Assembly (NCBI GenBank): GCA_030704615.1
Contig: CM060733.1
Location: 61,814,001 to 61,878,000 of the forward strand
Source of the DNA: Takakia lepidozioides
Taxonomy: Eukaryota; Plantae; Bryophyta
Length of the DNA stretch: 64,000 bases
Direction: 5' to 3'
Every line of letters starts with the position of its first letter. Position 1 is the stretch's first letter. A model generated the notes under the pieces. The model worked only from the letters and a program-made list of their open reading frames with translations, was not told the origin of the DNA and did no database searches. The position numbers were made by a program, and so were the translations under genes. Shown here piece after piece: positions 3,750 through 64,000 of this stretch.

Positions 3750-5215
3750 CACAATGGTTAGCCCTGGTGCATAACAAAGTCTACATCTAGTATGTCCATC
3801 CCACAGTACATGCTCCAATATGTTGTTTGTGGAGGAGCTTTTGAATGCAAAAAATGACTTATGCCCACATCGCTTGCGAGTGAAATCTCCGAATCCCAGC
3901 AATTTTGTGGATAAATAAAAAAAATGATCAATTTTGTGGAAAAATCAAAGGGTCCTTGCAGAGTCGGTCAGATTGTTCCGAATGATACTTTCATATGTGC
4001 ACACTGCAAATTACCTCCCACATGTACAGGGGTTTGTCCTGCAAAAATGTATCACGTTGTTCCCATAAAGGGGGTTATATCGTCTAAAGCAACAGTGCAC
4101 TGTGGACCCTCACTCGCATTCCACATGTCCATCGCCATGTAGGGGGATCGCAAATGAAATTAAAGCTGTGCAGTGGGCAAAGAGGTTGCCAATTATCGTG
4201 GTTGTGGCACAAATTCTGTCCAGCTGGAAGTGGGAAAGAAACTATTGTTCGTCATTATACTTTCCAAAGATAACTCCAATGAAAAAAATACACTCACAAA
4301 TATGGAGCTCCAACGAGCAATAGATGTTGTTGCTTCCCTCACCAGATCAAGTAATGTACGAAATTTTGCATACAATGCCAAGTCTGACTTACTTCCTTCT
4401 GGAGAGGTGGAAGGATTACTGACTCTGAAGCGACTGTGTGGATATGACTACATTCATGGTAATTGATTCCCAGGTTAGGGTCTGAAAGCGCCCACTGCTA
4501 TGTACATTCAACATGTCCACCACCGGCCCAGCATCTGGGGTGAACCTCATCAACAGGATGCGGCCGGACGGTGATCTAGGCCATTGTTGGGCAATGTTTG
4601 ACCATGTGAAGAGATTGACAAACGGCTAGACCACCATGGCTTGCGACGTGTACAATCCTCATGTTCAAAGGCTTCAGACCATTGCAATATGCGAAATGAA
4701 ATGCGAGGACATGCAATGTCAGATGATAATGTGGAACATGATCAACGACGGCCTCATTAGCAAAGGGATGAAGAAAGCAGAATTATGTGGCTTCATGGCT
4801 GATAACGCCATGGCCAATTTCAGAGCTGTCAGGTCGGTGTTTGGTGATGGACCTGATGTTCCACTTGATGGCAAAGAACAGTCGTGTGCATTTCACTGGA
4901 CTCAATCAGTTGAATCCCATACAGAAAGACTTATCCCGAGCGGTAGACAAGAAGAGCATAATTTTTTCTGCATGGCATGGAAGGATGCTACCCTAGAGAG
5001 CGAAGCTGATGTGTGAATTTCCATCCATGGGGGATTAGATGAAGTTGTCTCGGGGGGAGGGAGGGCCAGGTGGCGTTGCATACGAAAATTAGCTAACATC
5101 ATGGTGGCAAAATGAAGCAGATTGCCACAAAGAACATTTGCTCGAGCTGCAGAGTTGGATTTCATGGTGGCATGTGCGATATCGAATGTGGAGGAACTTT
5201 ATGCATTATGTACGT
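3750..5215 (+). pseudogene. Degenerate MULE transposase (GCM-like Zn domain plus MULE DDE core), divergent lineage A
   Basis: ORF pieces 3924..4142 (CAHC...C.A), 4173..4466 (CGYDYIHG), 4636..5016 (IAICEMK...GFMADNAMAN...SCAFHW) and 5138.. (SWISWWH.R) are collinear with the transposase at 29420-33053. The piece ends at a GT donor (5210) at the same position as the intron at 31550. Confidence 0.8.
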
Positions 5216-16699: not shown

Positions 16700-16808
16700 T
16701 TGCTGCCAATGCGATCATCGCACTCCACAACACCACATCTCGTTGAGCCACATTGTCGAACACTACATTTACATCTTCAATGCTCCCGCATTCGGCATAC
16801 ATGTCCCC
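16700..16808 (-). pseudogene. Single PPR-motif fragment flanking the MULE left end
   Basis: Minus strand reads GDMYAECGSIEDVNVVFDNVAQRDVVLWSAMIA. Confidence 0.75.
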
Positions 16809-17023
16809 TAGGGGGGGGCTGCTATTTCATGAGTGGCATGAGCATGAGCGGAAAAAAAAAAAACATGAGCGGGCCATTGTGTGTCCACGGAAATAGGGTT
16901 AGGAGGCACGGAAATAGGGTCATGTGGACTCGTCATAGCAATGAAATGCAACATTTTATTGCAAATTTTGTGGCAAGCCACGTCTATACAAGTGTGTCCT
17001 AACTGACATAGCAAGAATGGAAA

Positions 17024-20000
17024 CTACTCTCCTACACCTTCCGAAGAACTTGGCCCTCCTTCTTCCTCATCCCCCTCATCCCCCCCATCCTCCGAGCTCT
17101 GTGATGCATCGGTTGCACTATGCCTCTCAAAAATTCCGTCCTCTCCTTGGGGGACTGTCCACCTCACCTCCTGGGAATCTTCTGCCTCTTCTCCCCCACT
17201 TTCCTCAGCAAAATCCAAGACAAATCTACGAGCCCGACGGGCTCTAATATCTGCTGCCTCCTCCCTCATCTTCATTTTCTTGAGGCTTGCCTCGTCTAAA
17301 ATCTGTTGTACACGACTAGGTTCGGAAGACCTCCTAATGGACACCGAAGCAAGCCGGGCAGCATAAGTAGGAAGGATGTAGTCCCTTTCTGGACTAGGCA
17401 TGAAATCCCCCCTGGCAAAAAAATGCACGTTCCTCCTGCCCATGAACTCCGGTGTAGACGTCCCTCCTGCAATACTTGGCATCCTACAGTAAGAACAAAT
17501 CCACTTCAAGAATGTCAATACCATCAGAAGCAGAAAGGGTTTTCAATGAAATAAGAGAGCGAAGGGAGGTGCCTCACAAAATCTGGAGGCAACTTACAAT
17601 GCGACCACTCACTCGTAAACCGGGGGCTCCTCGGCCTCGATCCCAACTTGTTCCTCCCCCTGCTCCTTCTCGGATTTTCCTCATCCTCCGAGGGTGCCTT
17701 TTCCTCTTTGGGCAGACGTTCAGCCGCTACAAGTTCCGAGTTGTGGAGGGCAGTATCTGGCTCGAAGGCGAACACATGCCTGTCGGACAATGTCCCTGCC
17801 CACATTGAAGCACCTGAGGAACAAAGCGGGCGGTTAATAGCTTGCGGCATGCAATTGCAATCGGGCCAGGGGACAAACTGAGCACGTGAAGGCTTACCCG
17901 TGCCACATGTGAGGTCAAGAATCCGCCCTTGGACATCCGAGCACGTCTCCATGAGGGTTTGGATGAAAGCAGGGCTCCGGGTCCGGCTGTACCGCCACGG
18001 TTTGCCTGTCTTTGTGTCCTTCGGCATACTGGAGTGGGGCACATAGTTGTAGAGGACATTGTAGGTAACAGGGTCCACAACGGCATCAACAAGACGACCG
18101 TCGTTGTGGAATTTGAACGTAGACCCTCTCTTCACAAAGCAATATGCCTCAAACACCAATGTCTGTACATCCAACAAAAGAGGGATCAACTCCGGGATCT
18201 AGTTTAGATACACCACAATATGAGGTGAATGCAATAGATTGATAACTTACACTTTGGCCCTCTGTTCGCAACCCCTGTGTATTGATGCAGAACCATTTTC
18301 TGAGGAGGACCGGGGTGACACTTTTCGGTGTCCATCTTGCCACCGCATTCTCTGTGGTCTTCCCTCTTGTGGCAAGGACAACCACACATCCACCGTCATC
18401 CAGGAGCATCCCCGCCAGCCCAAACCCGGCTTTCCAGTAGTCCTCAGTAAACCTGTTCCAGTTGGGCACACCATCCAGGCCCTCCAGCAGCTCCCCATCT
18501 GGAATGTCGAGGAGAATCATATCGCAAGCTCTCTCCACCTCCACCAGAAAGTCGGCACCAAGGGCAGGATCAGCTATGGCCACGTACTTTACCATCCGCA
18601 ACTTGTACTTTATGTGGGCCCTGGCCTCCGCAGCTTTGAGATACGATTCGAGTGCCGGGAGGGTTAGATTCTTCTCCTCTGACTCCATGTAGAACCTCCG
18701 CGCATGTGCCAAATCCTGCTGAATTTTCATCTGTCTGAATTTTCATAAGATTAGAGATCCTGCTCAACACTTTTTCTTCTATTGGGGGAGGAGAGACATA
18801 TTAGCTCAACAAAACAATCAGGAGCTTTACCCGAAATATGTAGTCCACCATGGCGTCCATGCTCAGCCTATACCAGGTTCTGTCTGCCTTTGCCTCCGAC
18901 TTGCGCAGGAGGTCGGCACTGAGCGAATTGGCAAACTCTTGCACCCCCTGCTTCCCGACATCCTTCATTTGGAAGAGCATATGGGACAAGTTGGTGGCAA
19001 TGAAGGCATTCTCAGTCACCCTGCAATGCCACATTTCCATCAAACAATTCTGAAATGGGAATTTACAACAAATATGAGGATTTGCAATGAAATGACTTAC
19101 AATCGGATGGGTCCAAAAGCAAGAGGCGTTGTAACTTACGAGTTGATGTCCGCCATTGCAGCTTTGAGAAGACTGCGATCTTTGGGCCCTGCAACCTTCA
19201 GCACAACACACTCCACGGCGAAATGCCAATCGAGGTCGTTGGGGTGGGCTTCGGCTATGTGCTCCATCCATGCCAGGAGGCGATGATTGCCGTCCCACAC
19301 GTAAAACATCTTTCCGGACAAGTGCTGGAAAAGAGGATCAGTAGCAATCGATCTCTCGAACTCCTCATTTTGCCTTTGCCAATGGGGACCCCATTTTTCC
19401 ACCTCATCGGAAGTGTGGGCACGGGAAGCTCCGTGGTCGTTCTCAATGGAAACGTAAAACGCGGCATACCCCATTCGATATCCATCCTGAAAAGAGAATT
19501 TCAGCTTGTCGATATTGCCTGGGAGGGCAGGTCTCACCACCTGCAAAGATACCAAGCGGCAAAGGGGAATTCGAAGCTTGGCCGGGTACACCATGCCCCC
19601 CAGCACCCTGCCAATGTTGCTATGGGTTGCCTCCAACATCTTGGCAGCGGCCAACTTCATATCCGCCTCCGACATGACGTCTGCTGCAGAGGGGTTCTCC
19701 GGCAGCCCACCAGGACCGCCAAATCCAGCCTGTATGTTGCGGGTTTGGGGCCTGGGGATGTCCGGGAGGATGTCATCCTGGTCAGAAAGCTCGGTGTCGT
19801 CCTCCTCAACATGGTCAACCACCGGCAAAACCACCTCGAGCACTCTCCCCGTCTCTACTGCCATCTCCCCGGCTTCACCTTGAACTTGCACAATCCGTGC
19901 TCTTTGTGGTGTTCTTTCCTCTCCTCCACTCTCCACCATATGGGTAATTGCGGGGGCTGCTCTTGTCCGTGATGGTGTAACCCGTGTGTTACTGCCTCTT

Positions 20001-20544
20001 TGTGGTGTCTTGGAGGGATCCACCGTCTCTGTGCATCCCTCGCTTACATGGGCATCTGTTTTCGGCACCCCCGGCCTCTTCAGTGGCCTTTTCTCTTTCC
20101 TCTTGGCTAGCCTTCTGTCCCTGTTCTTTTGCCCTCTCTTTTGCCCTCTCACGGGCTTTCTGTTTCTTACTAGGGCTAGCAGCAGGGGAGCCCTCCAGGA
20201 CGACCACCTTTGATTGAGGAGAACTGCCACCCTCGCGCGCACTGCTCACTCCCCCCTCCGCAGCCCGTGACGGCTCTCTCGCCGGGGATTGCATGTGTTT
20301 GGCTTTCTTCTTCTTCTTTGCGTGGGCGGGCCCTACTGCATGTGCATCAACAACCTCCATTGCCGGATCTGCTGTCCTCACGCCCTTCACCTGCCATGCC
20401 GCCTGCACCAACCTCCCCAATGCCTATTCTGTCGTACTCTCGCTGCAGGTCCTCCCGTCCACCAACAAAAGGTTTTCGTTTGCCCTCCCGCCCCAAGTTG
20501 GGCGATCCAAACTTGCGATGAGTTGGAGCTGTCGATGATACCAC
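17024..20544 (-). pseudogene. Intron-containing ParB-like domain + beta-class N4-cytosine/N6-adenine DNA methyltransferase gene (frameshifted in this copy)
   Basis: ParB/Srx signature YVWDGNHRLLA in ORF 19136..20242. MTase motif IV-like DMILLDIPDG plus LLDDGGCVVV in 18149..18730. RSPAFIQTLMETCSDVQGRILDLTCGTG in 17524..18189 joins after an 84-nt GT-AG intron (17897-17814) to ASMWAGTLSDRHVFAFEPD. Other frame-consistent introns: 19139-19021 and 18250-18163. Frameshifts near 20070 and at an imperfect 16-nt duplication (~18715-18746). Confidence 0.8.
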
Positions 20545-20899
20545 CAGCGTGCCGGGCTCGTCGTCACTCTGTCATTCCCGAAAATCGTGAGAACCAACAT
20601 CGGAATGAAAACCACCATCCGCCACGAGCAGCGCAACCACCATCGCAACAATCGTGGAACAACAATGAAAACAAAACAAAACCAAGTATGGAGTGGCATG
20701 GAACAACAATGAAAACAAATCCAACCAATGCCTAAGAATGACATGCGCAAGCAGCCTTCTCCAGAGCTGACGACTTTGCACACGCATTGCAAACTATCTA
20801 AGGTTCACTCAACCAGTAACTTGCATAAATCAACATGAAACACGATGAACAAATGAACACGAATTCCATAAGACGGGAAAATAGGGTGAAATGTTTTGA

Positions 20900-21115: not shown

Positions 21116-22176
21116 CGGAAGATATGAAAACAAACTAAAAAAACGAAGAAAACCGAAAGAGGAAGGGGTGGAACCTGAGAGTGCTCGGCTTCAGTTGGCG
21201 CGGGCTGTGAGCAAGACAATGGAATTTCCTGCTGGAGCTTAAGTTTGGCCATGCGAGAGGTTGGACGTCGCCCGTAGTACAAAGCCTTCAGCTTCCGCCG
21301 CGGTCTGGATGTGGGATTTCTCTCAGGAGAGCCACGCCCTTCTCCACGCGGCATAAGTCCCAGCAAAAGAAAAAAGATCTCGCAGTATGTGTGCGTACAT
21401 GCCTCGAATAGAAGTTCATCCAAGTTTAGCATCAGGTTTCCAAGGCGTATCCGGGAAGCAAGCGCGGAATCCTTGTGTCGCCAGCCCAGTTCAAAACCGA
21501 CGGCGGAGGACATTTAATGCTCAACTACGTCAATCGCCCGCTCGATGGAAAAAATCGGCGCCGAATTTCTATCCAGCGGATGAAGTATGACGCAACGAGG
21601 CCATCCCTCCGCCCGAGCCGTTCTCATCCAAGAGACGCCGGATGGAAATCTTGCGCCGCATTTCCATCCTGCCGGTAATTCGGAGCGCGGCCGGATGGAC
21701 AAACGGCGCCGAATTTCCATCTTGCAGGCAATTCGGAGCGCGGCCGGATGGAAATCCGGCGCTGGATTCCCATCAAACAGGTAACTCGGAGCGCGGCCGG
21801 ATGGAAATTCGGCGCCGAATTTCCATCCGCCAGGTTAGTCGAAGCGCCGAATTACCGTCCTGCAGGTAATTCTGAGCGTGGCCGCTTGTTTTTTTGGTCT
21901 AAAAAGACACAACCTTAAGTTTTAGACACGGTTTTCAGGGAATTCTCGACTGGTTGAGAGAAATTCCTTGCTTCTTTTCCATCCCTCGTAGTTCCTACAT
22001 GGAAATTCGTTGCCGAAATTCCATCTGGCCGCGATTGCGATTAAATGCTGAATGGAAATTCGGCGCTGGTTTTCCATCTGGCCGTGAGCGCGATTACATG
22101 CCAAATGGAAATTCGGCGCCGGTTTTCCATCCCCTCCGCCCGAGTCCACTTTATTCCGGCGCCCCCTATTGGATAT

Positions 22177-25100
22177 TGTCGCGCACCTCACTTCGGTAAA
22201 CTCCCCCACCTCAAGTCATAGTTACTCGCTTGATGCGCGCGCCTAACTCCCAACCTGGCCGCCGGGCCAACTTGGAGCTCCGGCTGCTCACCGGGGCATA
22301 ACGGTCCCCTTTTGGTCTCCCAAAGAACCCTCCAACGATTTGGAACTAGCGGGAATTCCCTTTGGTAGTTGCCAGTCCGGAACAGCTCCCCACTCTTTGG
22401 TTGCTTTCCGGCTCGCTCGCTTACTCACTAGTTTTTGGTCACCAACGGGCTTGCACCGTTCTCGGGGTTACTACTCCCTATATATACTTCTGTAGCTGTC
22501 CGCGGGGGTTTCACAAACAACCATGCCATTTTATGGCGAACCACCACGAACACCCTCGACTCCCGGTGATGAGTCGCGGTGAGTCTTGGCCCACCCACCA
22601 CGGCCCCAATGGACCGTGATGAGTCCCAAGACTCCCCACGACTCCCACCACGAGGTCTCCGCCCCAGGGTGAGTCCTATGCCACCCCCACTAAGTCCCGG
22701 TAAGCTACCACCACCCCTTGTGGAGCCACCCCCACCGCAACCCGGTATGCGGGGCTCCACCTAGTGAGCGCCTCCGCCTCCTTGAGTGCCTTGGCACTCA
22801 AGGGTGCTTTAGCCCCTCATACCTATCGCTGCCACTGCCCCCACCACAGGGGAAGCCCCTCTTGTGTCCCGACCCCCCCTGCCCTCAAGGCAAAGGGCCG
22901 CGACACACACCCCTACCAACAGGGAGTTGATGTCCTCATCGGCTTATCCATTTTGTGGAAACGAACATCCAAGTTGTGGCGTCCCACATCAAGGAGTTTG
23001 TTTCCGTACCATGGCGTCCCATGGCAAAGAACCAAACCCCACACTTGACTCTACTCTCCACTAGCTAGTTCGGCCGACTTCCTCCAAGTCCCGGCCAAGG
23101 GTGGAGCCTCTTAAGCTCCTCCCAGTGCACTCTTCTTGGCCTACTTCAAGGCCAAGGAACGATCCTCCCCGAGGATCGAATCGCCTTACTGCAACAACAT
23201 TGTTTGCGACCGCTCATGATGCCGCTTTTGGCATCACCTTGAGCAAGGGTTCACCTCGAACCCTCTTTGACTAGGAAGATAACCTTGAACCAACCGCGCA
23301 CCCCAATCACTACAATTGGGTCCGCCTTGGAATGCTGGCCTGAGGTACGGGAACACGCCGAAGCCGCACTATGACTTCGTCCCGAGGCTACACGATTATA
23401 GTACGTGAACGGAAGCACGTAGCTTCCGCATTAGCCCGCACTACAAAGCAACCCCCTCGGTAGCACAGTTATAGTATGCGCACGCGCCAGGTGCGCACTA
23501 GCACGTGAACTCCTAAAGAAGGCGCAAGTTTCCTTGCCCCTTGGATGGGAGTAACCCGATTTCGGCACTGCGCAAACACACGATTAACCCAATTTACCTC
23601 TCCCACTTTTGTAAGCTAGCATGCATTCTACACACTAGCCAACCACACCATGCATCACCATTCCAAACAAAATAGGACGCACAACATTTGGAACCCATTT
23701 CCTTTATAACAAATTTTTTGTACAATACAAGTTTTTGCAATCGGATTCCTAAGCTAGCTAAGCCGGGCTAAGCATGCATTTCCTCCCCCATGCTCGAAGG
23801 TTGATGTCCCCATCAACGCTTCTTCCACTTTTGAGGTCGCCCTTCGAAAACTGCAACTGCCTCGGATGCGTTTCCCACGCACCCAAGATGCCTCCACATG
23901 ATGATAGCCCTTCCATTTGACGAGATACTCCGTTTCTCGGTTCTTGAACCTCCTCAACTTAAGTACTGCCTCCACCTCGTACTCAGGTTTATTTTCATGA
24001 TCCAACAGCACAGGTGGCGGACGCAACACTTGATGCCGATTCGGACACGCTTCATCTTTGAAGTAAGGCTTCAAAAGGGAGACGTGGAATACTGGATGCA
24101 CCTTGCTGTTTGCCGGCAGCTCCAATTCATACACATCCTCATTCATAACCTTCCGGATGCGAAAGGGTCCCGCATACGGAGGTACGAACTTTGGACTCAC
24201 TTCCGGAGGTAGTCGGAAATTCTTGATGTTCAACCAGACCTCCGTGCCTGCCTCAAACTTCACTTCCCTCTGCTTCCGATTCGCCTGCCTTTCATACCGT
24301 TTCCTAGCTTTGGCAATGTTGTACTTTGCAAGCTTCAACAAACGCTCGCGTTCTTCCAGTACCGCCGCTACTGCCGGTTCCTCAACGTCCTAGGCGGCCC
24401 AACTTGTCGGCACCAGAGGTGCTTTTCCATAGACCAATACAAAAGGGGAAACTCCCGTTGCGGAGTGTTCTGTGTTATTATAACAAAACTCTGCCGCGTC
24501 TAAGTGTTCCACCCAGTCTGTTTGGTCTGCCGACACGTAATTCCGTAAGATCTGCTTCACTACGGAATTCACTCTTTCCGTTTGGCCGTCGGTCGTAGGT
24601 CGGAAAGCGGTGCTCATCTTCAGCCTCGTCCCCATCTTCTTTCAAAGTGCCCTCCAAAATTTACTCGTAAACTTTGGATCGCGGTCCGAGATAATATCCT
24701 TCGGGACACCATGATGCTTTAAGACGTGGGCGAAGTAAAGTCGCCGTGTTTCCTGCGTCGTTGCCGTCTCCTTGGTGGGGATGAAATGGCCCATTTTACT
24801 GAACCTATCCACCACCACCATGATTGCATCGAATCCTTTTGACAGCGGCATAGCAGTTATGAAATCCATCGAGACACTTTCCCAAATCCCCTCTGGAATC
24901 GGCAAAGGTTGTAACAGCCCCGCTTGCTTTTTGTACTCGCTCCGGTTTTGTTGGCATGTGGTGCATGTCTTGACATACTCCTCTGCCTCCTCCCTTAGTT
25001 TGGGCGAGAAATACTCTTTCTTCAAGAGTGCCGCAGTGCGCTTGGCTCCGCCGTGTCCCGCAAGCGGGCTATCATGACATTCTCTCAAGAGGCTATCTCT

Positions 25101-28100
25101 GATCCCTCCCTTCGGCACGTAGAGATGCTTTTGCTTATACCGGAGCAGTCCATTTTGCAAGTGGAACTGCGATTTAACCCCCATCCTCACCCGCGATCTT
25201 GGCGAAAATTCTCACATACTTCCAGTAATAGGAGGCGAGTCCTAGGAAGGATCGCACTCCCGGGACCGAAGTCGGAGGCTCCCAGTCCAAGATTGCCCTC
25301 ACCTTCCTGTCATCCATTCTGATCCCATCCTGTGTAATCACATGCCCCAAGAACTCCACTTTTGTGACCCCGAATTCGCACTTTGAAGCTCTGGCATACA
25401 GCTTCCCTTCCCGCAATTTCTGGAACACCCTTTTGAGGTGCTCCAGGTGCTCCTCCTTTGTTTTCGAATACACCAAGATGTCGTCGATGTACACGATCAC
25501 AAAGTCATCCAACCACTATTGGAAAAGGTTGTTCATCAGCGTGCTAAAGGTCGCGGGAGTGTTGGTGAGTCCAAAAGGCATCACCAAGAACTCATATGAA
25601 CCATACCTTGTCCTGCACGCGGTCTTCTCCTCATCTCCTTCCGCCACTCGAATTTGATGATAGCCGGAGCGCAGATCGATCCGGCTGAAATACTTTGCTC
25701 CTGCCAACCGATCGAAAAGGTCGTCGATCCTTGGCAAAGGGTACCGGTTTTTGATAGTCACCTTATTCAAAGCCCTGTAATCAACACACATCCGCAGCGT
25801 CCCATCCTTCTTGTCTGCGAATAGCACCGGGGCTCCGTAAGGTGACTTACTCGGCCGGATGTACCCCTTTGACATTAGATCTTTGAGTTGAGTCTTCAGC
25901 TCGACCAACTCTCTGTGGCTCAACTGGTAGGGTGCCTTGGCAGGCGGTTCCAATCCCGGTATCACCTCAATCTTGTGGTCAACTCCTCTTCGCGGTGGCA
26001 AGCCGCTTGGTAAATCCTCCGGCATCACATCCTGGTATTTCTCCAAAATCCCCTTGATCCAATCTGGGCTTGGCTCCCCATCGCCTTCTCCCTTCACTTC
26101 TCTAATGTAGAGCAAAAACTGGGGCTCGTGTGCCTCCTCCACGACCCACTCCCTTGCTGACAGAAGGTTTATTCTCCCTCCCACGGGTTTGGGCGTTTCC
26201 GACACTCGTAAGACCTCGCCACCATTCCCACATGGCAGCGTGACTACTCTCTTGCGACCATCTATGACCGCTCCGGATTTGCTCAAAAAGGTCATCCCCA
26301 AAATGAGATCCACTCCATCGATCTCGCAGATGGTGAAGTTCTCACGTCCCTCCCAACTCCCCAGTTGAAGAGGAACATCAAACGCCAACCTTGTCGCCAA
26401 TTGCGGTTCTCCTTTGGCAGAACGCACCTCAATAGAGGCCCCCACGTCACTTGTCGGGAGTCCCAGCTTTTGTGCCGTTGCCGGTGTCATGAAGGAGTGC
26501 GACGCTCTTGTGTCCACCAACAACAACACGTTAGTTCCGGATATTATCCCATCCACGAACAATAACTGACTCCCTTTACGTAAGGCGTCAGTTTCCTGAT
26601 ACAACTCACAAGAAAATTTACCTACCTTGCAAGTCCTGGCGACCACCGCTTCCACCAAGCGACTGATGGTATCTTCCGACAGCTCTGTGGTCGCCCGAGT
26701 CATGTTCAATTGTCGGGGCTTCGTGCACTTCTTGGCCATGTGCCTGGGCTCCCAGCAATTGAAACACACTCCATCAAAGGTCGCCTTCTGTCCGCCATAG
26801 GCCGCTCCACCCGCTTTTCCTTTGGAAGCACCGGGTGCCGCCTTGACTTGTGAAGGCCCTCCCTTTGATTTCCACGTGTCATTGTCGCCGCGTGGCCTAT
26901 CCCACTTCTTTTCCGGTCGGAAGGAGTCACCTTTCCGCCGGGTCTTCTTGTGGTTCACCTCCGTAGAGCCTTGTCTTTCACCCTTAGGGACATCCGAGAA
27001 ACATTCAGCCCTCTCAATTGCCACGTTCAAAGTCTTAAGTGACTTCTTCTCCAACTTCCGCCTGGTCCATGGGGCCAGTCCCGCCACAAAGTTGAAGACC
27101 ATTTCTGGTTTTGCCATGTCCGCGACTTCGAGCAACAGCACATTGAAAGCCTGGACATATCCCCGAATGACATTTGTTTGCTTCAAATTCCTCATCTTGT
27201 CCCGGGCTAGCCAGGACGCGTTGAGGGGCACAAACTGCCTCTTCATCAATTCCTTGAACCCACTCCAGTTCAAAGTTTCCGGGCTTGGACCTCGGTCGTG
27301 AAGGCGTTTTTGCCACCATTGTTGAGCATAGCCCCTCAAATAGGTGGGAGCCACTTCCACCCGATCCTCGTCACTCAACTTGGCCGCCCGGAAGTACTGC
27401 TCTAGCTCCAAGAGCCAGGTGTTGAGTGCCTTCCGATTTCGGACGCCCTCGAAGGTGCCGGGTTCCTTAGGCTTCACCTTAAACTTTGCCTTAGTGGAAG
27501 TGGCATTAGCCGCCTTCAACACGTCTTTCAACGTCCCGCCAAATTGCGCCAACAACCCTTCCCAAAAGGCTGCCGGCATGGGAGGCATCTGTTGGTCGGT
27601 CGAAGCTCTCAGGGATTCCTCAGGCTCCGACTCCTCAGATTCCTCCCGTTCTTGAGCGGCCTCGTTTTCGGAAACATGTTTCGCTTCCTCAAACGGCCGC
27701 CTCGGTGACACGTCACCCCCATCGGGCTCACTAGGATCATCATCTTTTGGGCCGTTACGCTTTTGCTTTGGCTTGCCCGACCCCATGATGAGGCCAATCC
27801 CAAGGACGATCGCGTACTGAACTCTAAGCGCTGATACCAAGTGTCGCGCACCTCACTTCGGTAAACTCCCCCACCTCAAGTCATAGTTACTCGCTTGATG
27901 CGCGCGCCTAACTCCCAACCTGGCCGCCGGGCCAACTTGGAGCTCCGGCTGCTCACCGGGGCATAACGGTCCCCCTTTGGTCTCCCAAAGAACCCTCCAA
28001 CGATTTGGAACCAGCGGGAATTCCCTTTGGTAGTTGCCAGTCCGGAACAGCTCCCCACTCTTTGGTCGCTTTCCGGCTCGCTCGCTTACTCACTAGTTTT

Positions 28101-28570
28101 TGGTCACCAACGGGCTTGCACCGTTCTCGGGGTTACTACTCCCTATATATACTTCTGTAGCTGTCCGCGGGGGTTTCACAAACAACCATGCCATTTTATG
28201 GCGAACCACCACGAACACCCTCGACTCCCGGTGATGAGTCGCGGTGAGTCTTGGCCCACCCACCACGGCCCAAGTGGACCGTGATGAGTCCCAAGACTCC
28301 CCACGACTCCCACCACGAGGTCTCCGCCCCAGGGTGAGTCCTATGCCACCCCCACTAAGTCCCGGTAAGCTACCACCACCCCTTGTGGAGCCACCCCCAC
28401 CGCAACCCGGTGTGCGGGGCTCCACCTAGTGAGCGCCTCCGCCTCCTTGAGTGCCTTTGCACTCAAGGGTGCTTCAGCCCCTCATACCTATCGCTGCCAC
28501 TGCCCCCACCACAAGGGCAGCCCCTCTTGTGTCCCGACCCCCCTTGCCCTCAAAGCAAAGGGCCGCGACA
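22177..28570 (-). mobile_element. Ty3/Gypsy chromovirus LTR retrotransposon (both LTRs present, RNase H deleted)
   Basis: 729-bp LTRs 22177-22905 and 27842-28570 (TG...CA), TSD GATAT (22172-22176, 28571-28575), PBS TGGTATCAG (27831-27839, minus), purine tract next to the left LTR. Gag-PR-RT-IN-chromodomain on the minus strand. Confidence 0.95.
23754..27840 (-). pseudogene. Gag-Pol of the chromovirus (gag, zinc knuckle, protease, RT, integrase, chromodomain)
   Basis: 25516..27840: [51 protein letters not shown]. 25174..25512: YIDDILVYS. 24642..25190: HDSPLAGH...CTTC, SMDF, SDRDPKF. 24390..24635: TDGQTER. 23754..24341: PYAGPF and chromodomain YEVEAVL...YLVKWKGY. Stops and frameshifts present. 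Confidence 0.92.
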
Positions 28571-29419
28571 GATATTCGGTGCCGAATTTCCGTCCAGGGG
28601 TTGTATTGTGACGGCCAGGTGCCGGCCTCTCCCCCCGAGCCGACTGCATCCGAACGACCCCGGATGTAAATTCGGCGCCGTTTTTCCATCCGGGGAGGTT
28701 TTTATGTCGGCCAGTTTTCGGCCTGACCCCCCGACATGACTTCCTTTGGGGGGGCCCGGATGGAAATTCGGCGCCGAATTTCCATCCGGGGTCGGACAGG
28801 TGCCGGCCTCTCCGCCCGAGGCGACTTCATCCGGGCGGCCCCTGTTGGATATTCGGTGCCGAATTCCCGTCCGGGGGTTGTAATGTGACGGCCATGTGCC
28901 GGCCTCTCCCCCCGAGCCGACTGCATCCGAACGGCCCCGGATGTAAATTCGGCGCCGTTTTTTCCATCCGGGGAGGTTTTTATGTCGGCCACTTTTCGGC
29001 CTGACCCCCCGACACGACTTCCTTTGGGGGGCCCGGATGGAAATTCGGCGCTGAATTTCCATCCGGGGGATGTTCTCTGTCGGACAGGTGCCGGCCTCTC
29101 CGCCCGAGTCGACTTCATCCGGGCGGCCCCTGTTGGATATTCGGTGCCGAATTTCCATCCGGGGTTGTAATGTGACGGCCCGGTGCCGGCTTCTCCCCTT
29201 CAGCCGACATCATCCGGGTGGTCCCCCACTTTCTGACTGCAAACCGTTGGCAGTTATTGCGCAAAGATCAGGGGCCGCATTCCGGAGACAATGTTCATTA
29301 ACACTCTGACTGTGGATTTTTGAGATAGTTGGCTCCCTGGATTTGGATGAGGCTTCATCGCTCGGACAAATCGGCACCGCATTCCTTCCCATCGGTGCAT
29401 CCCCCTTCTACCAGGGAGC

Positions 29420-32400
29420 TTGCCCGCACGCCATCTTGGCAGTCTTGTGTGCACATCTCCCATGGCGGAAAACCCGAGCGCTATAGTGTACTGCCCTCCT
29501 CACGAGCATAGAGCTTCATTTCCGTGCAGAGGCGACATCTGCCGTGTGATGGAGAAATATCTGTGCGTTCGATACCACCTGAAACCGGGGTCGGTTTTTT
29601 TGGAGGAGGAAAGGAAGGACTCAAACGGCCTTGTTGTCGAGAGTATTGTTGTGCTCCACGATGATTTCGGCGATGGCAGGGAATGGCGAGTTCCACCATC
29701 AGACAGCGTCATATACAGGGCAGTTGGGGACTTCATTTGCCCACCAAATGCACCTTCTATCCTGGCGCCTTCCACGAAACAATCCGCGAATCAGAGAGTG
29801 GGTACCTCAAAGAGAGAAGTCCGCAACGAAGTAAATCCAAAGCCCAACCCATCAATGAAGACGAGCGAGAACCGGGTTGTTCACAACCTGTCCGACTCCG
29901 ACGAGGTCATGCAAGTTCCGAGATCGTCCTGGAGATCAGGCAAGTCCTCAATGGACGTCAGTGGATGAGGGAGTCATATTCCTTGCACGAGCACCGCAGT
30001 TCGATCCATTCTTGAAATTCTGCGAGGGCTTCACATGGATGGACACCGCTCGGAGCTGGCCGGGCTGGACTACAGCAAGTTTGCAATTAAATCGGTTACA
30101 TGCCTTCCCACAGACGTCGACGGTAATATCTTCTTTGAGTTCCCTCCTCGGACGGACTACTCGAGGGCGTCCGGAATGTTGACAGATATGGATAGAAAAC
30201 ATGATGGTTATCCTTGGTGCGTCACCGAAACCACCAGCATGAAGATGCTCGATGGTGTGCGGGTGCGCTACGTTGTTTGTGCGGGCGCGTTGCGGTGTTT
30301 CTCCCCAACTTGCTTCCATTTTAAATCCAGAGGTCACAGGAACGAGACCGATTGGACAGGCACAGCTCATCAACCATTTTGAGCTCAGGAGAAGGTTCCG
30401 AACTCCACATTTAAGTGTGCGCATTGCAAAGAACCACCACACTGCATGTCTGTTTGTAATGCCAAGCAGTTCTATGTGTTGCACCGTTTCCCTGACCTCA
30501 CCCGAGCTGGCATACACGTTGGTTCCCATTGTCACAAATTGGCGAGGGGGAACTCGCGGGAGGCTGCCCACGAGGCAAAGCAGCTCGTTCAGGAGGAGGT
30601 TAAGTTTAGACCGGGTGCCAAACCCAAACAGATACAACTCCAAGCCGCCCATAAGATGGCATTGGCCAGAATTATGTCGGAAGACGGCTCTGATAGAGTT
30701 CCTCTCGATGAGAAGGAAATGGAGGCATTGCTGGAGTCGGTGTCCCACGTCTGTTCACCGAACGTCCGAAACCACATTGTCTCATGCAAACAGAAAATTG
30801 GGCGTGGCTCGGATATGCACTCCATTTTGGAGGTGAAGCGACGATGTGGATATGACTACATTCATGGAAGTAGGTTTCCAGGACAAGGGACTGAGGCAGA
30901 TCGTTGTTTCGTATTCAAAATGTCCACGTGTGGACCTGGCAGCGGCGTTGAACTGGTCGACAAGATGACGAGTGGGGACTTGTCAAACAGTTGGGTCATG
31001 TTCGACCATATCAAGCGAATTACAAATCACCAGTGGGTGACAATGGGTGCACATGTCTACGACACCCACTGCAGGATCCTAATGACAATTGCTATTTGTG
31101 AGATGAAAGGAGTGGACACACAATCGGAGATGCTTCTTTGGCAGGGAATAAACGATTAGATGGCCAAGGCGGGATTGCCCCCTCCCAATTTCGGTGGTTT
31201 CATGGCGGACAACGCACAAGCAAATTGGGCTGCCATCCGAAGGGTGTACGGGCAAGACCCCAATGTTCCCATGGAAGGCAAGGAGAGATCTTGTGGGTTC
31301 CATTTTCTACAGAGCCTTTCGCAGTACACAACCAGGCTGGTGGCGCCAGATTTCAGAGAGGAGCACCGTTCCATGTGTCTTGCGTGGAAGCGCGCTCCCA
31401 CCTTGGATGATGCAGAGACACAGTTTGTATGTATACGGGCTTGGTGGACATCGTCAGGTGCTGTAAGGAAATCAGACGAGGGAGCAATGGTCAGTTGGCT
31501 AGCTTGGTGGCATTATCGTTTCCTCCAGTTCGGCGACTATATGCGGGAGGTGAGTTGCACGAATTCGCGTCCCATTGAATATTATTCTTGGCATTATTTG
31601 TAACTTGCTTGTAACCTCAACATGTGCTTGTGCAGGAAATGTGTCTCAACTCCGACACCGACATGCCCACGACAAACATGGCTGAATCAGTGCATTCTTC
31701 CTGGCGTGCCTCCTCTGCGGCGCATCTGGTGGACATCCTCACTGCCACAACGGAGGACATTGTGAGGTCAATTATGCAGCAATGCAGGTACAACGAGTTC
31801 TTGAAAGGGAAACAGTGGGGCTTGGGGCCGGACAGGCAGGAAATGCTGATGCGGACTGCCTCCAAATCGAAGAATCCTCGGAAGTGGGCGGCGGCCTTGC
31901 GAGAGGGCCTTTGGGACACGCCATTGCTTCGAAGAGGCCAACATTTGGAAGGAGATGTTCATACCCGTCCAGTGAGACGAAGACTTGACGAGGCACCTGG
32001 CGGGGAAGAGGATTCATGGCGAGCTGACAAGAATATTCGCACGCTCCCTCGTGGTCCCGTGATGTTGTCCGAGGAGGTCTCGTCGAGCACCGCAAGTCCT
32101 GCACGTTCAAGATCGCCATCTCCTTTGAGCATAGGGCACGTGCTCGAGGAACATAACGAACCATCTGTAGTAACGCAGTACAACATACCCATTGTGGAGA
32201 CAAGAGTGTCGGAGTCACAGTGGAGAATTGCAAGGACATTGCCGACATTTCGAGGGAAGTGTTGCGCCATTCGGGTGGATACGAGAGCACGTTGTGGTGA
32301 GATGATTCGGAGGAACCCACATGGTGCTGTACCTGCACCTTGTTTCAGCGGCAGATTTTTGACTCCCACATTTGCTCACGCCACAACGCAGACGTTTTGG

Positions 32401-33053
32401 TTCTGTAGGCACGACATAATGACCTGTGTATTTGGCAAGCCCAAGTACGGGATTCAGGGAATGTCGGAGCCTCCGGACGTCTGGCCTGTTGCACCGGGTT
32501 GCAGCCTCTCTCAGAATGAGGCGGATGCTCTATCTACAACATGATTTTGAATGGTGCAACGCACAGACGTCCCGGCCCACGCATTTCCAGTTCCTCAGAC
32601 CCAGCCATTGCAGACTGCTCGGTCCAGTAGAGACGGATTGGACAATTTTGCACATCCCACAATGCGATTCGGAAGAGTGAAGAGACGACGCCTCCCAACA
32701 AGTTGAATGAGACTCGGATTGCCAATGCTCTTGGGATGGCTTGCACTATTCAAAGCTCCGTGGACGTACCTCCACCCGGCCTTGGGCGTGTTTATCGGAT
32801 GGCAACGGCCGGCTCGGCTGTTCGCGACGATGTATACACAATTACGATTGGAGTGGAGCCGACTTGCAATTGTACGGACTTCTCGTTGATGGAAGCACAG
32901 AAGGGTTCAAAGTATTATCCGTGCAAGCATCTGTATTACATTGACCTGAAGAGGTTGAGGATGAACGTGACTATTGATGACTTTATTCATGCACCGGCGT
33001 TGAGCGTGAACGAGCTGCACAAACTCCTCCTTAGGGATTCCAGAAATCATTGA
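29420..33053 (+). pseudogene. MULE transposase with N-terminal GCM-like Zn domain and C-terminal SWIM finger
   Basis: CAGALRC...CAHC...C.A...HVGSHCH; DDE core VMFDH...FMADN...CGFH, then intron 31550-31635, then TTNMAESVHSSW; SWIM CNCTDF...PCKHLY (32703..33053). In-frame stops at 29966, 30380 and 31157, plus 3' frameshifts. Confidence 0.88.
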
Positions 33054-33204: not shown

Positions 33205-33380
33205 ATTTCTGGAAAAATGGCGCCGAATTTCTCTATTTTGGCCCGAAAACTGGTTAAGTCCCAACATGCACTGGTACCCCTGTGTCTGGGAAAATGGCGC
33301 CGAATTTCCCTATTTTGGGCCGAAAACTAGCTAAGTCCGAACATGCTCAGGAACGATGTCTGGAAAAATGTCGCCGAATT
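33205..33380 (+). repeat. Right subterminal ~72-75-bp tandem repeats of the MULE
   Basis: TCTGGAAAAATGGCGCCGAATTTC...CGAAAACTGG(C/T)TAAGTCC repeated about 3 times; the same repeats recur at 59805-60000. Confidence 0.8.
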
Positions 33381-58175: not shown

Positions 58176-60360
58176 GGAGAGGACACACAATCGGAGATGC
58201 TTCTTTGGCAGGGAATAAACGAAAAGATGGCCAAGGCTGGATTGCCCCCTCCCAATTTCCGTGGTTTCATGGCGGACAACGCACAAGCAAATTGGGCTGC
58301 CATCCGAAGGGTGTACGGGCAAGACCCCAATGTTCCCATGGAAGGCAAGGAGAGATCTTGTGGGTTCCATTTTCTGCAGAGCCTTTCGCAGTACACAACC
58401 AGGCTCGTGGTGCCAGATTTCAGAGAGGAGCACCGTTCCATGTGCCTTGCGTGGAAGCGCGCTCCCACCTTGGATGATGCAGAGACACAGTTTGCATGTA
58501 TACGGGCTTGGTGGACATTGTCAGGTGCTGTAAGGAAATCAGACGAGGGAGCAATGGTCAGTTGGCTAGCATGGTGGCATTATCGTTTCCTCCAGTTCGG
58601 CGACTATATGCGGGAGGTAAGTTGCACGAATTCGCGTCCCGTTGAATATTATTCTTGGCCATATTTGTAACTTGCTTGTAACCTCAACATGTGCTTGTGC
58701 AGGAAATGTGTCTTGACTCCGACACCGACATGCCCACGACAAACATGGCCGAATCAGTGCACTCTTCCTGGCGTGCCTCCTCTGCGGCGCATCTGGTGGA
58801 CATCCTCACTGCCACAACGGAGGACATTGTGAGGTCAATTATGCAGCAAAGCAGGTACAACGAGTTCTTGAAAGGGAAACAGTGGGGCTTGGGGCCGGAC
58901 AGGCAGGAAATGCTGATGCGGACTGCCTCTAGATCGAAGAATCCTCGGAAGTGGGCTGCGGCCTTGCAAGAGGGCCTTCGGGACACGCCATTGCTGCGAA
59001 GAGGCCAACATTTGGAAGAAGATGTTCATACCCGTCCAGTGAGACGAAAACTTGACGAGGCACCTGGCGGAGAATAGGATTCATGGCGAGCTGACAAGAA
59101 TATTTGCACGCTCCCTCGTGGTCCCGTGATGTTGCCCGAGGAGGTCTCGTCGAGCACCGCAAGTCCTGCACGTTCAAGATCGTCATCTCCTTTGAGCACA
59201 GGGCGCGTGCCCCGGCAACATAACGAGCCATCTGTAGTAAAGCAGTACAACATTCCCATTGTGGAGACAAGAGTGTCGGAGTCACAGTGGAGAATTGCGA
59301 GGACATTGCCGGCATTTCGAGGGAAGTGCTGCGCCATCCGGGTAGATACGAGAGCACGCTGTGGTGAGATGATTCGGAGGAACCCACACGGTGCTGTACC
59401 TGCACCTTGTTTCAGCGGCAGATTTTTGACTCCCACATTTGCTCACGCCACAATGCAGACATTTTGGTTCTGTAGGCACGACATAATGACCTGTGTATTT
59501 GGCAAGCCCAAGTACGGGATTCAAGGAATGCCGAAGCCTCCGGGCGTCTGGCCTGTTGCACCGGGTTGCAGCCTCTCTCAGAATGAGGCGGATGCTCTAT
59601 CTGCAGCAGGATTTCGAATGGTGCAACACACAGACATCCCGGCCCACGCATTTCCGGTTCCTCAGACCCAACCATTGCAGACTGCTCGGTCCAGTAGAGA
59701 CGGATTGGACAATTCTGCACATCCCACAATGCGATTCGGAAGAGTGAAGAGACGACACCCTCCCAACAAGTTGAATGAGACTCGGATTGCCAATGCTCTT
59801 GGGATGGCGCCGAATTTCTCTTTTTTGGGCCGAAAACTGGCTAAGTCCCAACATGCACTGGTACCGTGTCTGGAAAAATGGCGCCGAATTTCTCTTTTTT
59901 GGGCCGAAAACTGGCTAAGTCTCAACATGCACTGGTGCAGTGTCTGGAAAAATGGCGCCAAATTTCCCTATTTTGCGCCGAAAACTGGCTAAGTCCGAAC
60001 ATGTCATGAGGGGACCTATAGCCGCGGAATTCGGCACCATTTTTCGCCAGAGAGACCTATTACCGCGAAATACGTCGCCGTTTTTTCAGGTTACGGACCC
60101 TATTACCGCGAAATTCGGCGCCATATTTGCACATGTCGCTGGGAATTGGCATGAGCGGAAGACGAAATATCATGAGCACAACTGTCAAAACTACAATTTT
60201 CCCTTCAAGTGGCCGAATAATATATTTGTTTTTCCTGACACATTGCATTAAATTAATGTTTTTTTAGTGTTTTTTATTTTTGAAATTTGTACTTCTGCTC
60301 ATGAAAACCGATTGTTTTACTACTCCGCTCATGCCGCTCATGCTCATGAAATAGCTAACC
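58176..60360 (+). mobile_element. 3' half of MULE copy 2 with subterminal repeats and intact terminus
   Basis: Near-identical to 31114-32740, lacks the SWIM exon, then the 72-bp repeats (59805-60000) and terminus ...GCTCATGAAATAGCTAACC (60360). Confidence 0.88.
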
Positions 60361-60422
60361 TCATAATGAAGATGGCAGTGATGTGCCTGAAGATGATGAG
60401 GCTTGGAGAGATGAGAAGGAAC

Positions 60423-62280
60423 TGCCCACTGGTGATTTGTAATTCGCTTGATATGGTCGAACATGACCCAACTGTTTGACAAGTCCCCACTCGTCATCCT
60501 GTCGACCAATTCGACGCCGCTGCCAGGTCCACACGTGGACATTTTGAATACGAAACAACGATCTGCCTCAGTCCCTTGTCCTGGAAACCTACTTCCATGA
60601 ATGTAGTCATATCCACATCGTCGCTTCACCTCCAGAATAGAGTGCATATCCGAGCCACGCCCAATTTTCTGTTTGCATGAGACAATGTGGTTTCAGACAT
60701 TCAGTGAACATACGTGGGACACCGACTCCAGCAATGCCTCCATTTCCTTCTCATCGAGAGGAACTCTATCGGAGCCGTCTTCCGACATAATTCTGGCCAA
60801 GGCCATCTTATGGGCAGCTTGGAGCTGTATCTGTTTGGGTTTGGCACCCGGTCTCAACTTAACCTCCTCCTGAACGAGCTGCTCTGCCTCGTGGGCAGCC
60901 TCCCGCGAGTTCCCCCTCGCCAATTTGTGACAATAGGAACCAACGTGTATGCAAGCTCGGGTGAGGTCAGGGAAACGGTGCAACACATAGAACTGCTTGG
61001 CATTACAAACAGACATGCAGTGTGGTTGTTCTTTGCAATGCGCACACTTAAATGTGGAGTTCGGAACCTTCTCCTGAGCTCGAAATGGTTGATGAGCTGT
61101 GCCTGTCCAATCGGTCTCGTTCCTGTGACCTCTGGATTTAAAGTGGAAGCAAGTTGGGGAGAAACACCGCAACGCGCCCGCACAAATAATGTAGCGCACC
61201 CGCACACCATCGAGCATCTTCATGCTGGTGGTTTTGGTAACGCACCAAGGATGACCGTCATGTTTTCTATCCATATCTGTCAACATTCCGGACGCCCTCG
61301 AGTAGTCCGCCCGAGGAGAGAACTCAAAGAAGATATTACCGTCGACGTCGGCGGGAAGGCATGTAACCGATTTAATTGCGAACTTGCTGTACTCCAGCCC
61401 GGCCAGCTCCGACCGGTGTCCCTTCAGGTGAAGCCCTCGCAGAATTTCAAGAATAGATTGAACTGCGGTGCTCGTGCTGGGAATATGACTCCCTCGTCCA
61501 CTGACGTCCATTGAGGACTTGCCTGATCTCCAGGACGACCTCGGAACTTCCATGACCTCGTCTGAGTCGGACAGGTTGTGAACAACCCGGATCTCGCTCG
61601 TCTTCATGGATGGGTTTGGCTCTGGATTTACTTCGTTGCGGACTTCTCTCTTTGAGGTAGCCACTCTCTGATTCGCGGATTGTTTCGTGGAAGGCGCCAG
61701 GATAGAAGGTGCATTTGGCGGGCAAATGAAGTCCCCAACAGCCCTGTATATGACGCTGTCCGATGGTGGAACTCGCCATTCCCTGCCATCGCCGAAATCA
61801 TCATGGAGCACAACAATACTCTCGACAACAAGGCCGTTTGAGTCCTTCCTTTCCTCCTCCAAAAAAACCGACCCCGGTTTCAGGTGGTATCGAACGCACA
61901 GATATTTCTCCATCACCCGGCAGATGTCCCCACTGCACGGAAATGAAGCTCTATGCTCGTGAGGAGGGCAGTACACTGTAGCGCTCGGGTTTTCCGCCAT
62001 GGGAGATGTGCACACAAGACTGCCAGGATAGCGTGCGGGGAAGCTCCCTGGTAGAAGGAGGATGCAGCGATGGGAAGGAATGCGGTGCCGATTTGTCCGA
62101 GCGACGAAGCCTGATCCAAATCCAGGGAGCCAACTATCTCAAAAATCCACAGTTAGAGTGTTAATGAATCTTGTCTCCGGAATGCGGCCCCTGGTCTTTG
62201 CGCAATAATTGCCAACGGTATGCAGTCAGAATGTGGGGGGCCGTCCGGATGATGTCGGCTAAAGGGGAGAAGCCGGCACC
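60423..62280 (-). pseudogene. 5' half of MULE copy 2 transposase (GCM-like domain)
   Basis: ORF 60693..62015 (440 aa) and 60264..60647 match 29420-31037. It has CGA codons where copy 1 has TGA stops. Confidence 0.9.
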
Positions 62281-62289
62281 GTGCCGTCA

Positions 62290-64000
62290 CATTACTACCC
62301 CCGGATGGAAATTCGGCACTGAATATCCAACAGGGGCCGCACGTATGAAGTCGCCTCGGGCAGAGAAGCCGGAACCTATCCGACAGAGAACAACCCCCGG
62401 ATGGAAATTCAGCGTCGAATTTCCATTCGGATCCACCCAAAGAAAGTCATGTCGGGGGTCAGGCCGAAAATTGGCCGACATAAAAACCTCCGCGGATGGA
62501 AAAACGGCGCCGAATTTCCATCCGAGGCCTTTCGGATGCAGTCGGCTCGGGGGAAAGGCCGCCATCTGGCCCTTACATTACAACCCCCGGACGGAAATTC
62601 GGCACCGAATATACAACAGGGGAAGCCCGGATGAAGTCGCCTCGGGCGTAGAGGCCGACGCGTGTGCGACAGAGAATATCCCCTGGATGGAGATTCGGCA
62701 CCGAATTTCCATCCGGGCCCCCCCAAAGGAAGTCGTGTCGGGGGGTCAGGCCAAAAACTGGCCGGCATAAAAACATCCCCAGATGGAAAAACGGCGCCGA
62801 ATTTCCATCCGGGGCGGTTCGGATGCAATCGGGGAGGGGGGAGAGGCCGGCACCTGGCCGTCACAGTTCAACCCCCGGACGGAAATTCGGCACCGAATAT
62901 CCAACAGGGGACGCCCGGATGAAGTCGCCGCGGGCGTAGAGGCCGGCACGTGTTCGACAGAGAGTATTCCTTGGATGAAGATTCGGCGCCGAATTTCCAT
63001 CCGGGGCCGTTCCAATGCAGTCGGAGAGGGGGGAGAGGCCGGCACCTGGCCGTCATATTTCAACCCCCGGACGGAAATTCGGCACCGAATATCCAACAGA
63101 GCGGCGGAGAGGCCGGCACCTCTCCGACAGAGACCATCCCCCGGATGGAAATTCGGCGCCGAATTTCCATCGGGGCCCCCTCAAAGGAAGTCGTAAAAAC
63201 CTCCCAGAATGGAAAAACGGCGCCGAATTTCTTTCCGAGGCTGTTCCGATTTGCCTCTAGCAGTCAAGGATTCCAAGAAAAACGTGTCTACAAGTGCACT
63301 TCAGCCACAAAACAAACAGTTAGGTTTGTTTTTCTCCGAAAAATCAATCGGACACGCTCAGAATTACCTGCAGGAAGGTAATTCAGCGCTTCGAAATACC
63401 TGGCGAATGGAAATTCGGGGCCGAATATGCATACGCCAGCGATCCGACTTACCTGCTGGATGGAAATTCGGCGCCGGATTTCCATCCATCCGGGATTCGA
63501 ATTACCTGCAGGATGGAAATTCGGCGCCGGATTTCCATCCATCCGCCTCCGAATTACTTGCGTGAGGGAAATTTCGCGCGTCGCCCTATCTTGCAGGATG
63601 AAAATTCGGGGCCGGATTTCCATCCATCCGCCTCCGAATTACATGCATGAGGGAAATTTCGCGCGCCGCCCTACCTGCGCGGATGGAAATCCGGCGCCGG
63701 ATTTCCATCCATCCGCTTCTGAATTACCTGCGTGAGGGAAATTTCGCGCACCGCCCTACCTTGCAGGATGGAAATTCGGCGCTGAATTTCCATCCTGCTT
63801 GGCTCCGAATTACCTGCGTGAGGGAAATTTCGCGCGCCGCCCTACCTGCGCGGATGGAAATCCGGCGCCGGATTTCCATCCATCCGCTTCTGAATTACCT
63901 GCGTGAGGGAAATTTCACGCGCCGCCCTACCTTGCAGGATGGAAATTCGGCGCTGAATTTCCATCCTGCTTGGCTCTGAATTACCTGCGTGAGGGAAATT
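62290..64000. repeat. Palindrome array of MULE copy 2 (runs off the window)
   Basis: About 20 variants of GGATGGAAATTCGGCGCCG(A/G)ATTTCCATCC. From ~63560 they alternate with GAATTACCTGCGTGAGGGAAATTTCGCGCG in ~86-bp units (~172-bp higher-order unit). Confidence 0.92.

Follow-up and report, generated by a model that had tools for sequence, protein, structure and literature searches.

How does a gene that joins a ParB-like domain to a DNA methylase come to sit, split by introns, among the transposons of a moss, and what could its protein do with a catalytic motif IV that reads DIPD? These questions are raised by a minus-strand gene between positions 17024 and 20568 of a window of 64,000 nucleotides (nt) from Takakia lepidozioides (GenBank assembly GCA_030704615.1, contig CM060733.1, positions 61,814,001 to 61,878,000 of the forward strand); all coordinates below are those of this window. 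A first-pass annotation had seen in the gene an old horizontal acquisition domesticated inside a transposable element, belonging either to a catalytically active family of which this copy has decayed or to a family of non-catalytic DNA-binding proteins. Our answer, which we hold with moderate confidence, is that the gene, which has five introns, is broken and has suffered an internal deletion, that it lies head-to-head with a likely Mutator-type transposase, and that the intact protein, with its ParB and methylase folds, likely binds the palindromes of its own element and likely performs no classical methylation. We demonstrate the spliced structure, the lesions, the transposase linkage, the palindrome arrays and the family-wide change in motif IV; the two folds of the intact protein are predicted from models of relatives.

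The gene contains five GT..AG introns. Three of them had been placed correctly before, and two more (introns 2 and 5), together with a large internal deletion, had been overlooked. The structure was examined with contigs from four runs (X1 to X4) aligned over 16800-20800, where the status of X1 as RNA is the tool's guess and the key X1 contig differs from the window at 24 of 770 letters. Intron 1 (19021..19139, 119 nt) occupies a position common to homologues: homologue open reading frames stop at the same 'DIN' position, and tblastn alignments of the spliced Ceratodon protein P0005 break at this site in the loci L014, L020 and L058. Intron 2 (18719..18830, 112 nt) coincides with a family boundary at P0005 residues 450-454. 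The frameshift earlier suspected at 18715-18746 is actually the end of this intron, whose excision preserves the frame. The X1 and X4 contigs have no cover over 18676-19211, and introns 1 and 2 rest on homologue boundaries. Introns 3 (18163..18250, 88 nt) and 4 (17814..17897, 84 nt) are excised base-exactly in one X1 contig, and a DNA-type X2 contig reads through both ungapped. Of the three junctions originally predicted, two are thus supported by a spliced contig and the first by homologue boundaries instead. As had been proposed, intron 4 falls within motif I, the S-adenosylmethionine (SAM)-binding motif; its position is identical in L010, L020 and P0139, so the gain of introns appears to be old. 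The joint of intron 5 (17484..17597, 114 nt) is present in one X1 contig, in which the short side measures 38 letters.

Read in the coding direction, the spliced model begins with a low-complexity N-terminal region with a putative start (19595..20568), followed by the domain with the DGNHRLLA motif (19140..19594), to which a ParB/Srx fold is assigned from the model of homologue P0010, and by an exon encoding the helical region after it (18831..19020). Motif IV and the deletion junction share the next exon (18251..18718). The methylase-fold exon (17898..18162) ends in ILDLTCGT; the exon after it (17598..17813) completes motif I and carries the FAFEPD strand, and the last exon (17024..17483) encodes an acidic tail. 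Downstream, an X1 contig from a copy that has diverged further has a loose end of 29 T, which marks a likely polyadenylation site at 16938.

The window copy of this gene is dead. Compared with other copies it has 8 nt fewer at 20372 and 2 nt fewer at 20059/20060, both within the N-terminal region, and 1 nt fewer at 17674, in the exon that completes motif I; the second of these is the frameshift that had been reported near 20070. The last exon is out of frame. In addition, an in-frame deletion of about 380 codons, with 11 nt of microhomology at its junction (18535..18545), has removed the helical middle region. The deletion is recognized because the X2 and X3 contigs depart from the window on both sides of 18535-18545, one of them by at least 805 nt, and because in blastp the spliced window model aligns to P0005 residues 238-519 (37%) and then to 902-1123 (26%), with zero residues between the two segments. 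The middle region is helical in the model of homologue P0009. Among the other copies, a near-identical one yields a spliced contig, and the more distant one bears the poly(A)-like tail at 16938.

When 400 candidates were searched with the ParB-like exon, eight proteins matched, one of them M758_1G295400 of Ceratodon purpureus (1147 amino acids, with PF01555). This protein matched 856 cluster representatives at E 0.001, and among the 150 of these that were listed most are exon-sized; the named family members come from Ceratodon and Riccia sorocarpa (many paralogues). The window's own exons gave no Pfam match to a ParB or methylase family, and the ParB-like domain gave no Pfam ParB match. The fold models are those of homologues, P0010 for the ParB part (predicted local distance difference test score 81) and P0009 for the methylase part, rather than of the window protein. 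When the P0010 model was compared with 48,161 chains, the top eight all belonged to the ParB/Srx family (KorB, PadC, Pnob8 ParB, SerK, Srx, Atu1540, SbnI and human Srx; Z 5.2-7.8, with the next unrelated row at 4.0), KorB aligning over 93 residues at Z 7.8 and a root-mean-square deviation (rmsd) of 2.6. The modelled domain is accordingly predicted to have a ParB/Srx fold. No clear structural match was found for the helical region that follows it.

ParB Box II has the pattern GxxRxxA, and the window reads GNHRLLA, with the arginine in place. Across 36 sequences, the N of GNHRxxA is invariant, and conservation of its G, H, R and A reaches at least 90%; a role for the Box II arginine has been described (PMC12704722). 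For 45 open, distinct exons out of 80 loci, plus the window, the median ratios of nonsynonymous to synonymous substitution rates (dN/dS) of the ParB exon were 0.09-0.21 over 137 usable pairs of 1035, which at the level of sequence comparison shows purifying selection on this exon. In viral contigs the ParB pattern matched 23 stretches, with no relative among them.

For the methylase part, the P0009 model matches CcrM at Z 19.6 (rmsd 3.7, 221 aligned; Foldseek E 3.9e-10), and PF01555 was detected on both P0005 and P0009. Searches of PDB sequences returned nothing useful, the sole marginal match being M1.HpyAVI (E 0.025). The fold of the P0009 model, together with the order of motifs in the window, where motif IV lies ahead of motif I as had been noted, places the protein in the beta class. 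Both folds named by the first-pass annotation are thus supported by the models of homologues. Motif IV itself reads DIPD at 18497..18508, and contigs of X1, X2 and X3 span these codons with at least 37 letters on each side and no listed difference; differences near contig ends were not listed, and X4 was therefore excluded from this count.

Is DIPD a peculiarity of a dead copy? A nine-sequence profile was run against the 80 loci and the stored proteins, identical loci and proteins of the same cluster were merged, and six hits that fell short of the motif (P0105, P0121, P0161, L029, L070 and L074) were dropped, leaving 13 homologues. These read DTPF, DQPY, DQPF, DIPW, DAPE, DVPE, DIPE (L020), DYPE, DMPS, DLPT, DMPT, NVPG and YVPS, the last two from copies with stops. 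Not one of the 13 has the canonical (D/N/S)PP(Y/F/W), which the DIPD of the window also fails to match. The proline at position 3 is present in all 13 and the aspartate at position 1 in 11, while the aromatic fourth residue is absent from nine and an acidic one stands in its place in four, as it does in the window. On these sequences, the change in motif IV is family-wide and not a decay of the window copy. The first-pass annotation had asked whether DIPD or DIPY/DPPY is the consensus of the family; neither DIPY nor DPPY is, each being absent from all 13 homologues.

On the SAM side, the window reads DLTCGTG and FAFEPD. In the plant rows the motif I aspartate and final glycine are conserved in 8/8 and the acidic glutamate in 7/7; the first glycine of motif I is missing from P0005, P0160, P0139, L010 and L020, and the window retains GxG. 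In N4CMT and CcrM, binding of the target amino group falls to the first residue of motif IV and the carbonyl that follows it; the motif IV tyrosine was modelled as stacking on the target base (PMC10406627). Taken together, the sequences favor a SAM-binding pseudo-enzyme but would also suit an altered enzyme, and of the two alternatives offered at first it is the non-catalytic DNA-binding protein that is favored on this comparison. One clade (P0005, P0009 and P0033) retains an aromatic motif IV (DTPF, DQPY and DQPF), and P0005 and P0009 have lost the first glycine of motif I where it is readable, the reverse of the window lineage. In Ceratodon, M758_1G295400 represents the DxP(F/Y) type and M758_3G218200 the DxPE type, the latter as a gene model that requires re-annotation at its N-terminus.

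The ParB–methylase gene is the multicopy cargo of a transposon, likely a Mutator-like one, and not a host gene. The earlier suggestion of an old acquisition within a transposable element therefore holds for the old intron gain and the location, although 'domesticated' is not the word for multicopy transposon cargo. The left end of the element, on the plus strand (16814..16851), is a putative short, imperfect terminal inverted repeat with G as its first base; contigs of X1, X3 and X4 exit the window at 16813/16814, and a similar sequence stands in reverse orientation at 60362, where a second element copy ends. This second, rearranged copy (58176..64000) contains transposase pieces, the right end at 60362 and a longer, unbroken palindrome array that runs off the window. 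The right end of the first copy was not found within the window, and the left end of the second lies outside it. Mutator-like elements have terminal inverted repeats that are long or absent and duplicate 8-11 bp of target site; no target duplication was read off either copy. At 58176-60424 the second copy shows a seeming 2.25-kb inversion, which also flips about 60 nt of the adjoining retrotransposon.

Head-to-head with the cargo gene lies the transposase gene (29462..33053, plus strand), which is broken by several stops. Its product combines a Cys/His zinc region with putative D, D, CxxH and E motifs and, at the C-terminus, a SWIM finger. We take the motifs MFDH, FMADN, CGFH and TTNMAESVH to fit the DDE pattern of Mutator-like elements (MULEs). 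The SWIM finger (PF04434; E 0.0012, 18.8 bits) scores just below the cut-off of 19.6 and was counted as a zinc finger, and such fingers are tabulated for MULEs (PMC6446971). As no MULE profile matched, and no IS256 or PDB profile either, the assignment of this transposase to the Mutator class is only likely. Pieces of it match L029, L057, L070/72/76 and L078/79, in every case on the upstream side of the ParB exon and on the other strand, so that a linked transposase is seen in four of the eight distinct loci with at least 6 kb upstream and in none of the seven with at least 6 kb downstream. A transposase profile built from the linked loci themselves matched no further locus, and a transposase piece found no relative among 4555 candidates and no Atlas match. 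A piece of a more divergent paralogue, of a second subfamily, lies on the minus strand at 39466-40500 and matches L057 at 39% identity. In L057 itself, a 51-bp tandem array at 4879-5385, at the 5' end of the linked transposase, is possibly a coding repeat.

Between the cargo gene and the transposase lie 15 copies of a 30-bp palindrome, eight at 21545..22136 and seven at 28571..29225, split by the recent insertion of a Ty3 chromovirus-type long terminal repeat (LTR) retrotransposon (22177..28570, minus strand; LTRs 98.4% identical, 5-bp target duplication) that is no part of the element. Once the insertion is removed, the spacing across it is 64 nt. Degenerate copies occur past the transposase (33205..33380). 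The 18-nt core of the palindrome occurs 41 times in the window at up to four mismatches, compared with 0-1 times in 20 simulated windows, and 40 of the 41 occurrences fall in the non-coding parts of the two element copies. Moreover, 30 of 35 spacings differ by no more than 1 nt from a multiple of 10.6, and six spacing classes (43, 53, 64, 74, 85 and 96) correspond to 4 to 9 helical turns. The observed/expected CpG ratio is 1.04-1.39 in the arrays and 0.47-0.64 in the flanks and cargo gene, a difference confounded by the CpGs of the motif itself.

How, then, might the intact protein act? Its ParB domain would bind a nucleotide through the conserved GNHR motif and thereby act as a switch, and a dimer would load at, or bridge, the phased palindromes of its own element. 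The methylase fold may still bind SAM and DNA and serve as a DNA-binding or shielding module, because the base-stacking aromatic has been lost in most lineages. The outcome would be a shared promoter region of the element that is kept open, as VANC does for VANDAL elements. A more ambitious form of this proposal, which we regard as rather unlikely, is that Mutator-like elements of land plants run a phage-descended ParB/parS-like system, in which a nucleotide-switched clamp forms at the phased palindromes and an acid-for-tyrosine methylase fold either protects cytosines against silencing by the host or lays down a non-classical mark that is neither N6-methyladenine (6mA) nor N4-methylcytosine (4mC).

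Several observations weigh against a protein that binds its own element and does not methylate it classically. Both the binding and the catalysis of the ParB–methylase protein are predictions, a DNA-recognition helix was not identified, and the ParB-fold Z is below 8, with Foldseek agreeing only at E 0.007 and nothing reaching E 0.001. The dN/dS pairs are non-independent and were prefiltered for open frames (45 of 80 loci). As for the palindromes, three of the nine distinct spacing classes (77, 120 and 198) are off phase, a jitter test on the nine classes returned p 0.014, its best period falling at the limit of the range scanned, and tandem duplication renders the spacings non-independent. 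Among the four linked loci only L057 shows a palindrome family, in its spacer, by a lax six-mismatch count with no control, and this family differs from that of the window; L070 has a 116-bp array without a palindrome, and none was seen in L079 and L029. The palindromes could also be transposase sites, and half of the long loci have no nearby transposase. Finally, four of the 13 homologues retain the aromatic of motif IV (DTPF, DQPY, DQPF and DIPW), the tree is silent on whether these are ancestral or regained, and the family has conserved the D and P of motif IV as well as the SAM pocket, all of which an active enzyme would need too.

The last of these points leads to the possible, if doubtful, reading that the intact protein is an active deviant amino-methyltransferase, guided by its ParB domain and writing 6mA or 4mC on its own element, as has been proposed for algal transposons and, in particular, for Sola1-1_Ec32 (PMC12477816). 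Besides the conserved D and P and the SAM-binding residues, the F, Y or W kept in four homologues and the GxG kept in motif I of the window would suit such an enzyme. However, the stacking aromatic is missing from nine homologues and the window lineage, an acid has taken its place in four and in the window, and five family members have lost the first glycine of motif I. That the family consists of ordinary DIPY-type methylases, with DIPD a single disabling mutation, has been largely refuted and retains hardly any probability: the window copy is indeed dead through several other lesions, and two phage hits do read DIPY, but the DIPD codons stand without a listed difference in the X1, X2 and X3 contigs, no homologue has DIPY or DPPY, and L020 reads DIPE. 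An unlikely alternative is that the protein is a MURB-like helper of transposition that bridges palindromes for end pairing or transposase loading and has no role in silencing, or that the palindromes serve as sites for the transposase and the cargo has its action elsewhere. Palindrome copies do occur near the right end (33205-33380 and 59874-60111), the head-to-head linkage is conserved, and mudrB has been described as required for integration (PMC6446971); most palindromes, however, are located well away from the ends, in the promoter-side spacer, the surroundings of the left end yielded none, and the arrays are richer in CpG, with the confounding given above. It is very improbable that we are dealing with a domesticated host gene situated among transposons by chance, to which the introns, the spliced contig and the purifying selection in relatives might point, since there are many similar and broken copies, a transposase is linked in four of eight loci, and the element ends and a second element copy lie within the same window.

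The idea of a ParB/methylase cargo is already in print for algal transposons as an untested proposal, and the land-plant Mutator-like form is a variant of it. The accessory protein of Ectocarpus Sola1-1_Ec32, proposed to bind and modify its own element, combines a ParB-like domain with an N4C/N6A methylase in one protein of about 1100 amino acids, encoded opposite the transposase (PMC12477816). Compared by description, the gene studied here has the same design: it belongs to a DNA transposon, runs opposite to the transposase and joins a ParB-like to a PF01555 domain. The setting differs, in that the algal case involves a brown alga and a Sola transposase and ours a land plant and a Mutator-like transposase. 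The likeness is one of description and not of sequence, and the available portion of that account does not discuss motif IV or palindromes; no algal name appeared among the named matches of our family searches. In the red algal Plavaka elements, too, a ParB-like cargo lies beside tandem inverted-repeat arrays, there is a PF01555 methylase cargo, and self-binding has been hypothesized; PAG2 and PAG3 of these elements have homologues in Mutator elements of Chondrus (bioRxiv 10.1101/2025.02.11.637652). There, however, ParB is joined to a 2-oxoglutarate (2OG) oxygenase and the methylase to a SET domain in separate genes, whereas here ParB and methylase form one protein.

A tested precedent for self-targeted anti-silencing is VANC, the accessory protein of the Mutator-like VANDAL elements, which targets tandem repeats in non-coding DNA (PMC5735166). 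Its activity has been demonstrated, and the likeness is one of arrangement, with no homology claimed. Among single enzymes, CcrM, M.BceJIV, rotifer N4CMT and Marchantia DN4MT1 share the fold and the motif order; two of them, N4CMT and DN4MT1, are prokaryotic-type enzymes that occur in eukaryotes. Unlike the window gene, these four carry DPPY or SPPY, and they are active enzymes of a host or a bacterium. The DN4MT1 preprint does not mention a ParB domain, and the main text of a MULE survey (PMC6446971) does not mention a methyltransferase. We found no account of a ParB–methylase fusion in land-plant transposons in the literature covered, which mostly excludes subscription journals. This work thus extends the idea of a self-binding ParB/methylase cargo to land plants, for which Ceratodon and Riccia supply full-length gene models, and offers a candidate binding site; the two natural states of motif IV, with the aromatic kept or lost, allow a direct comparison. 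If the proposal is true, it would add a second, independently derived system of transposon self-regulation and possibly a ParB-type DNA clamp in a eukaryote.

Where did the fusion come from? A prokaryote or phage origin is plausible on sequence grounds. Fusions of ParB and methylase are common in phages (PMC12704722; PMC4738411), and those of phages and prophages join a ParB-CTPase fold to an N6_N4 methylase, the same two domains in the same order. The nearest named Atlas clusters are such fusions (score 0.84, a lead only). The phage proteins are about half as long, with no introns and no long helical middle, and the two with a readable motif IV keep the tyrosine. Three of 144 phage records were examined; their tblastn matches were weak (best E 7e-5), two read DIPY and the third was unreadable. 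The phylogeny that had been called for was built with 12 rows, and its branches are long. As the phage matches are weak and the base of the plants in the tree is without resolution, no donor is named. It nevertheless looks as though DIP was inherited from a phage-type subfamily and the tyrosine was then lost in most plant lineages, since two of the three phage hits read DIPY and most plant lineages have no tyrosine.

The rest of the window is rich in transposons, with PPR fragments, chromodomain Ty3 retrotransposons and a CACTA fragment. The last (12212-13722, minus strand) represents a CACTA element's right end and contains subterminal repeats as well as a fragment of DUF4216; it was rejected as the carrier of the ParB–methylase gene, having its own end and lying outside the left end at 16814. 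The PPR fragments (8072-8572, 16710-16813, 35384-36409 and 44001-44320) show a spacing of about 300 nt and are 76-87% alike, and the left end of the Mutator-like element interrupts one of them. The young Ty3 element at 22177-28570 bears a chromodomain, and a related LTR lies at 53882-54628. At 1418-2065, imperfect inverted repeats rich in A/T runs extend over several hundred bases.

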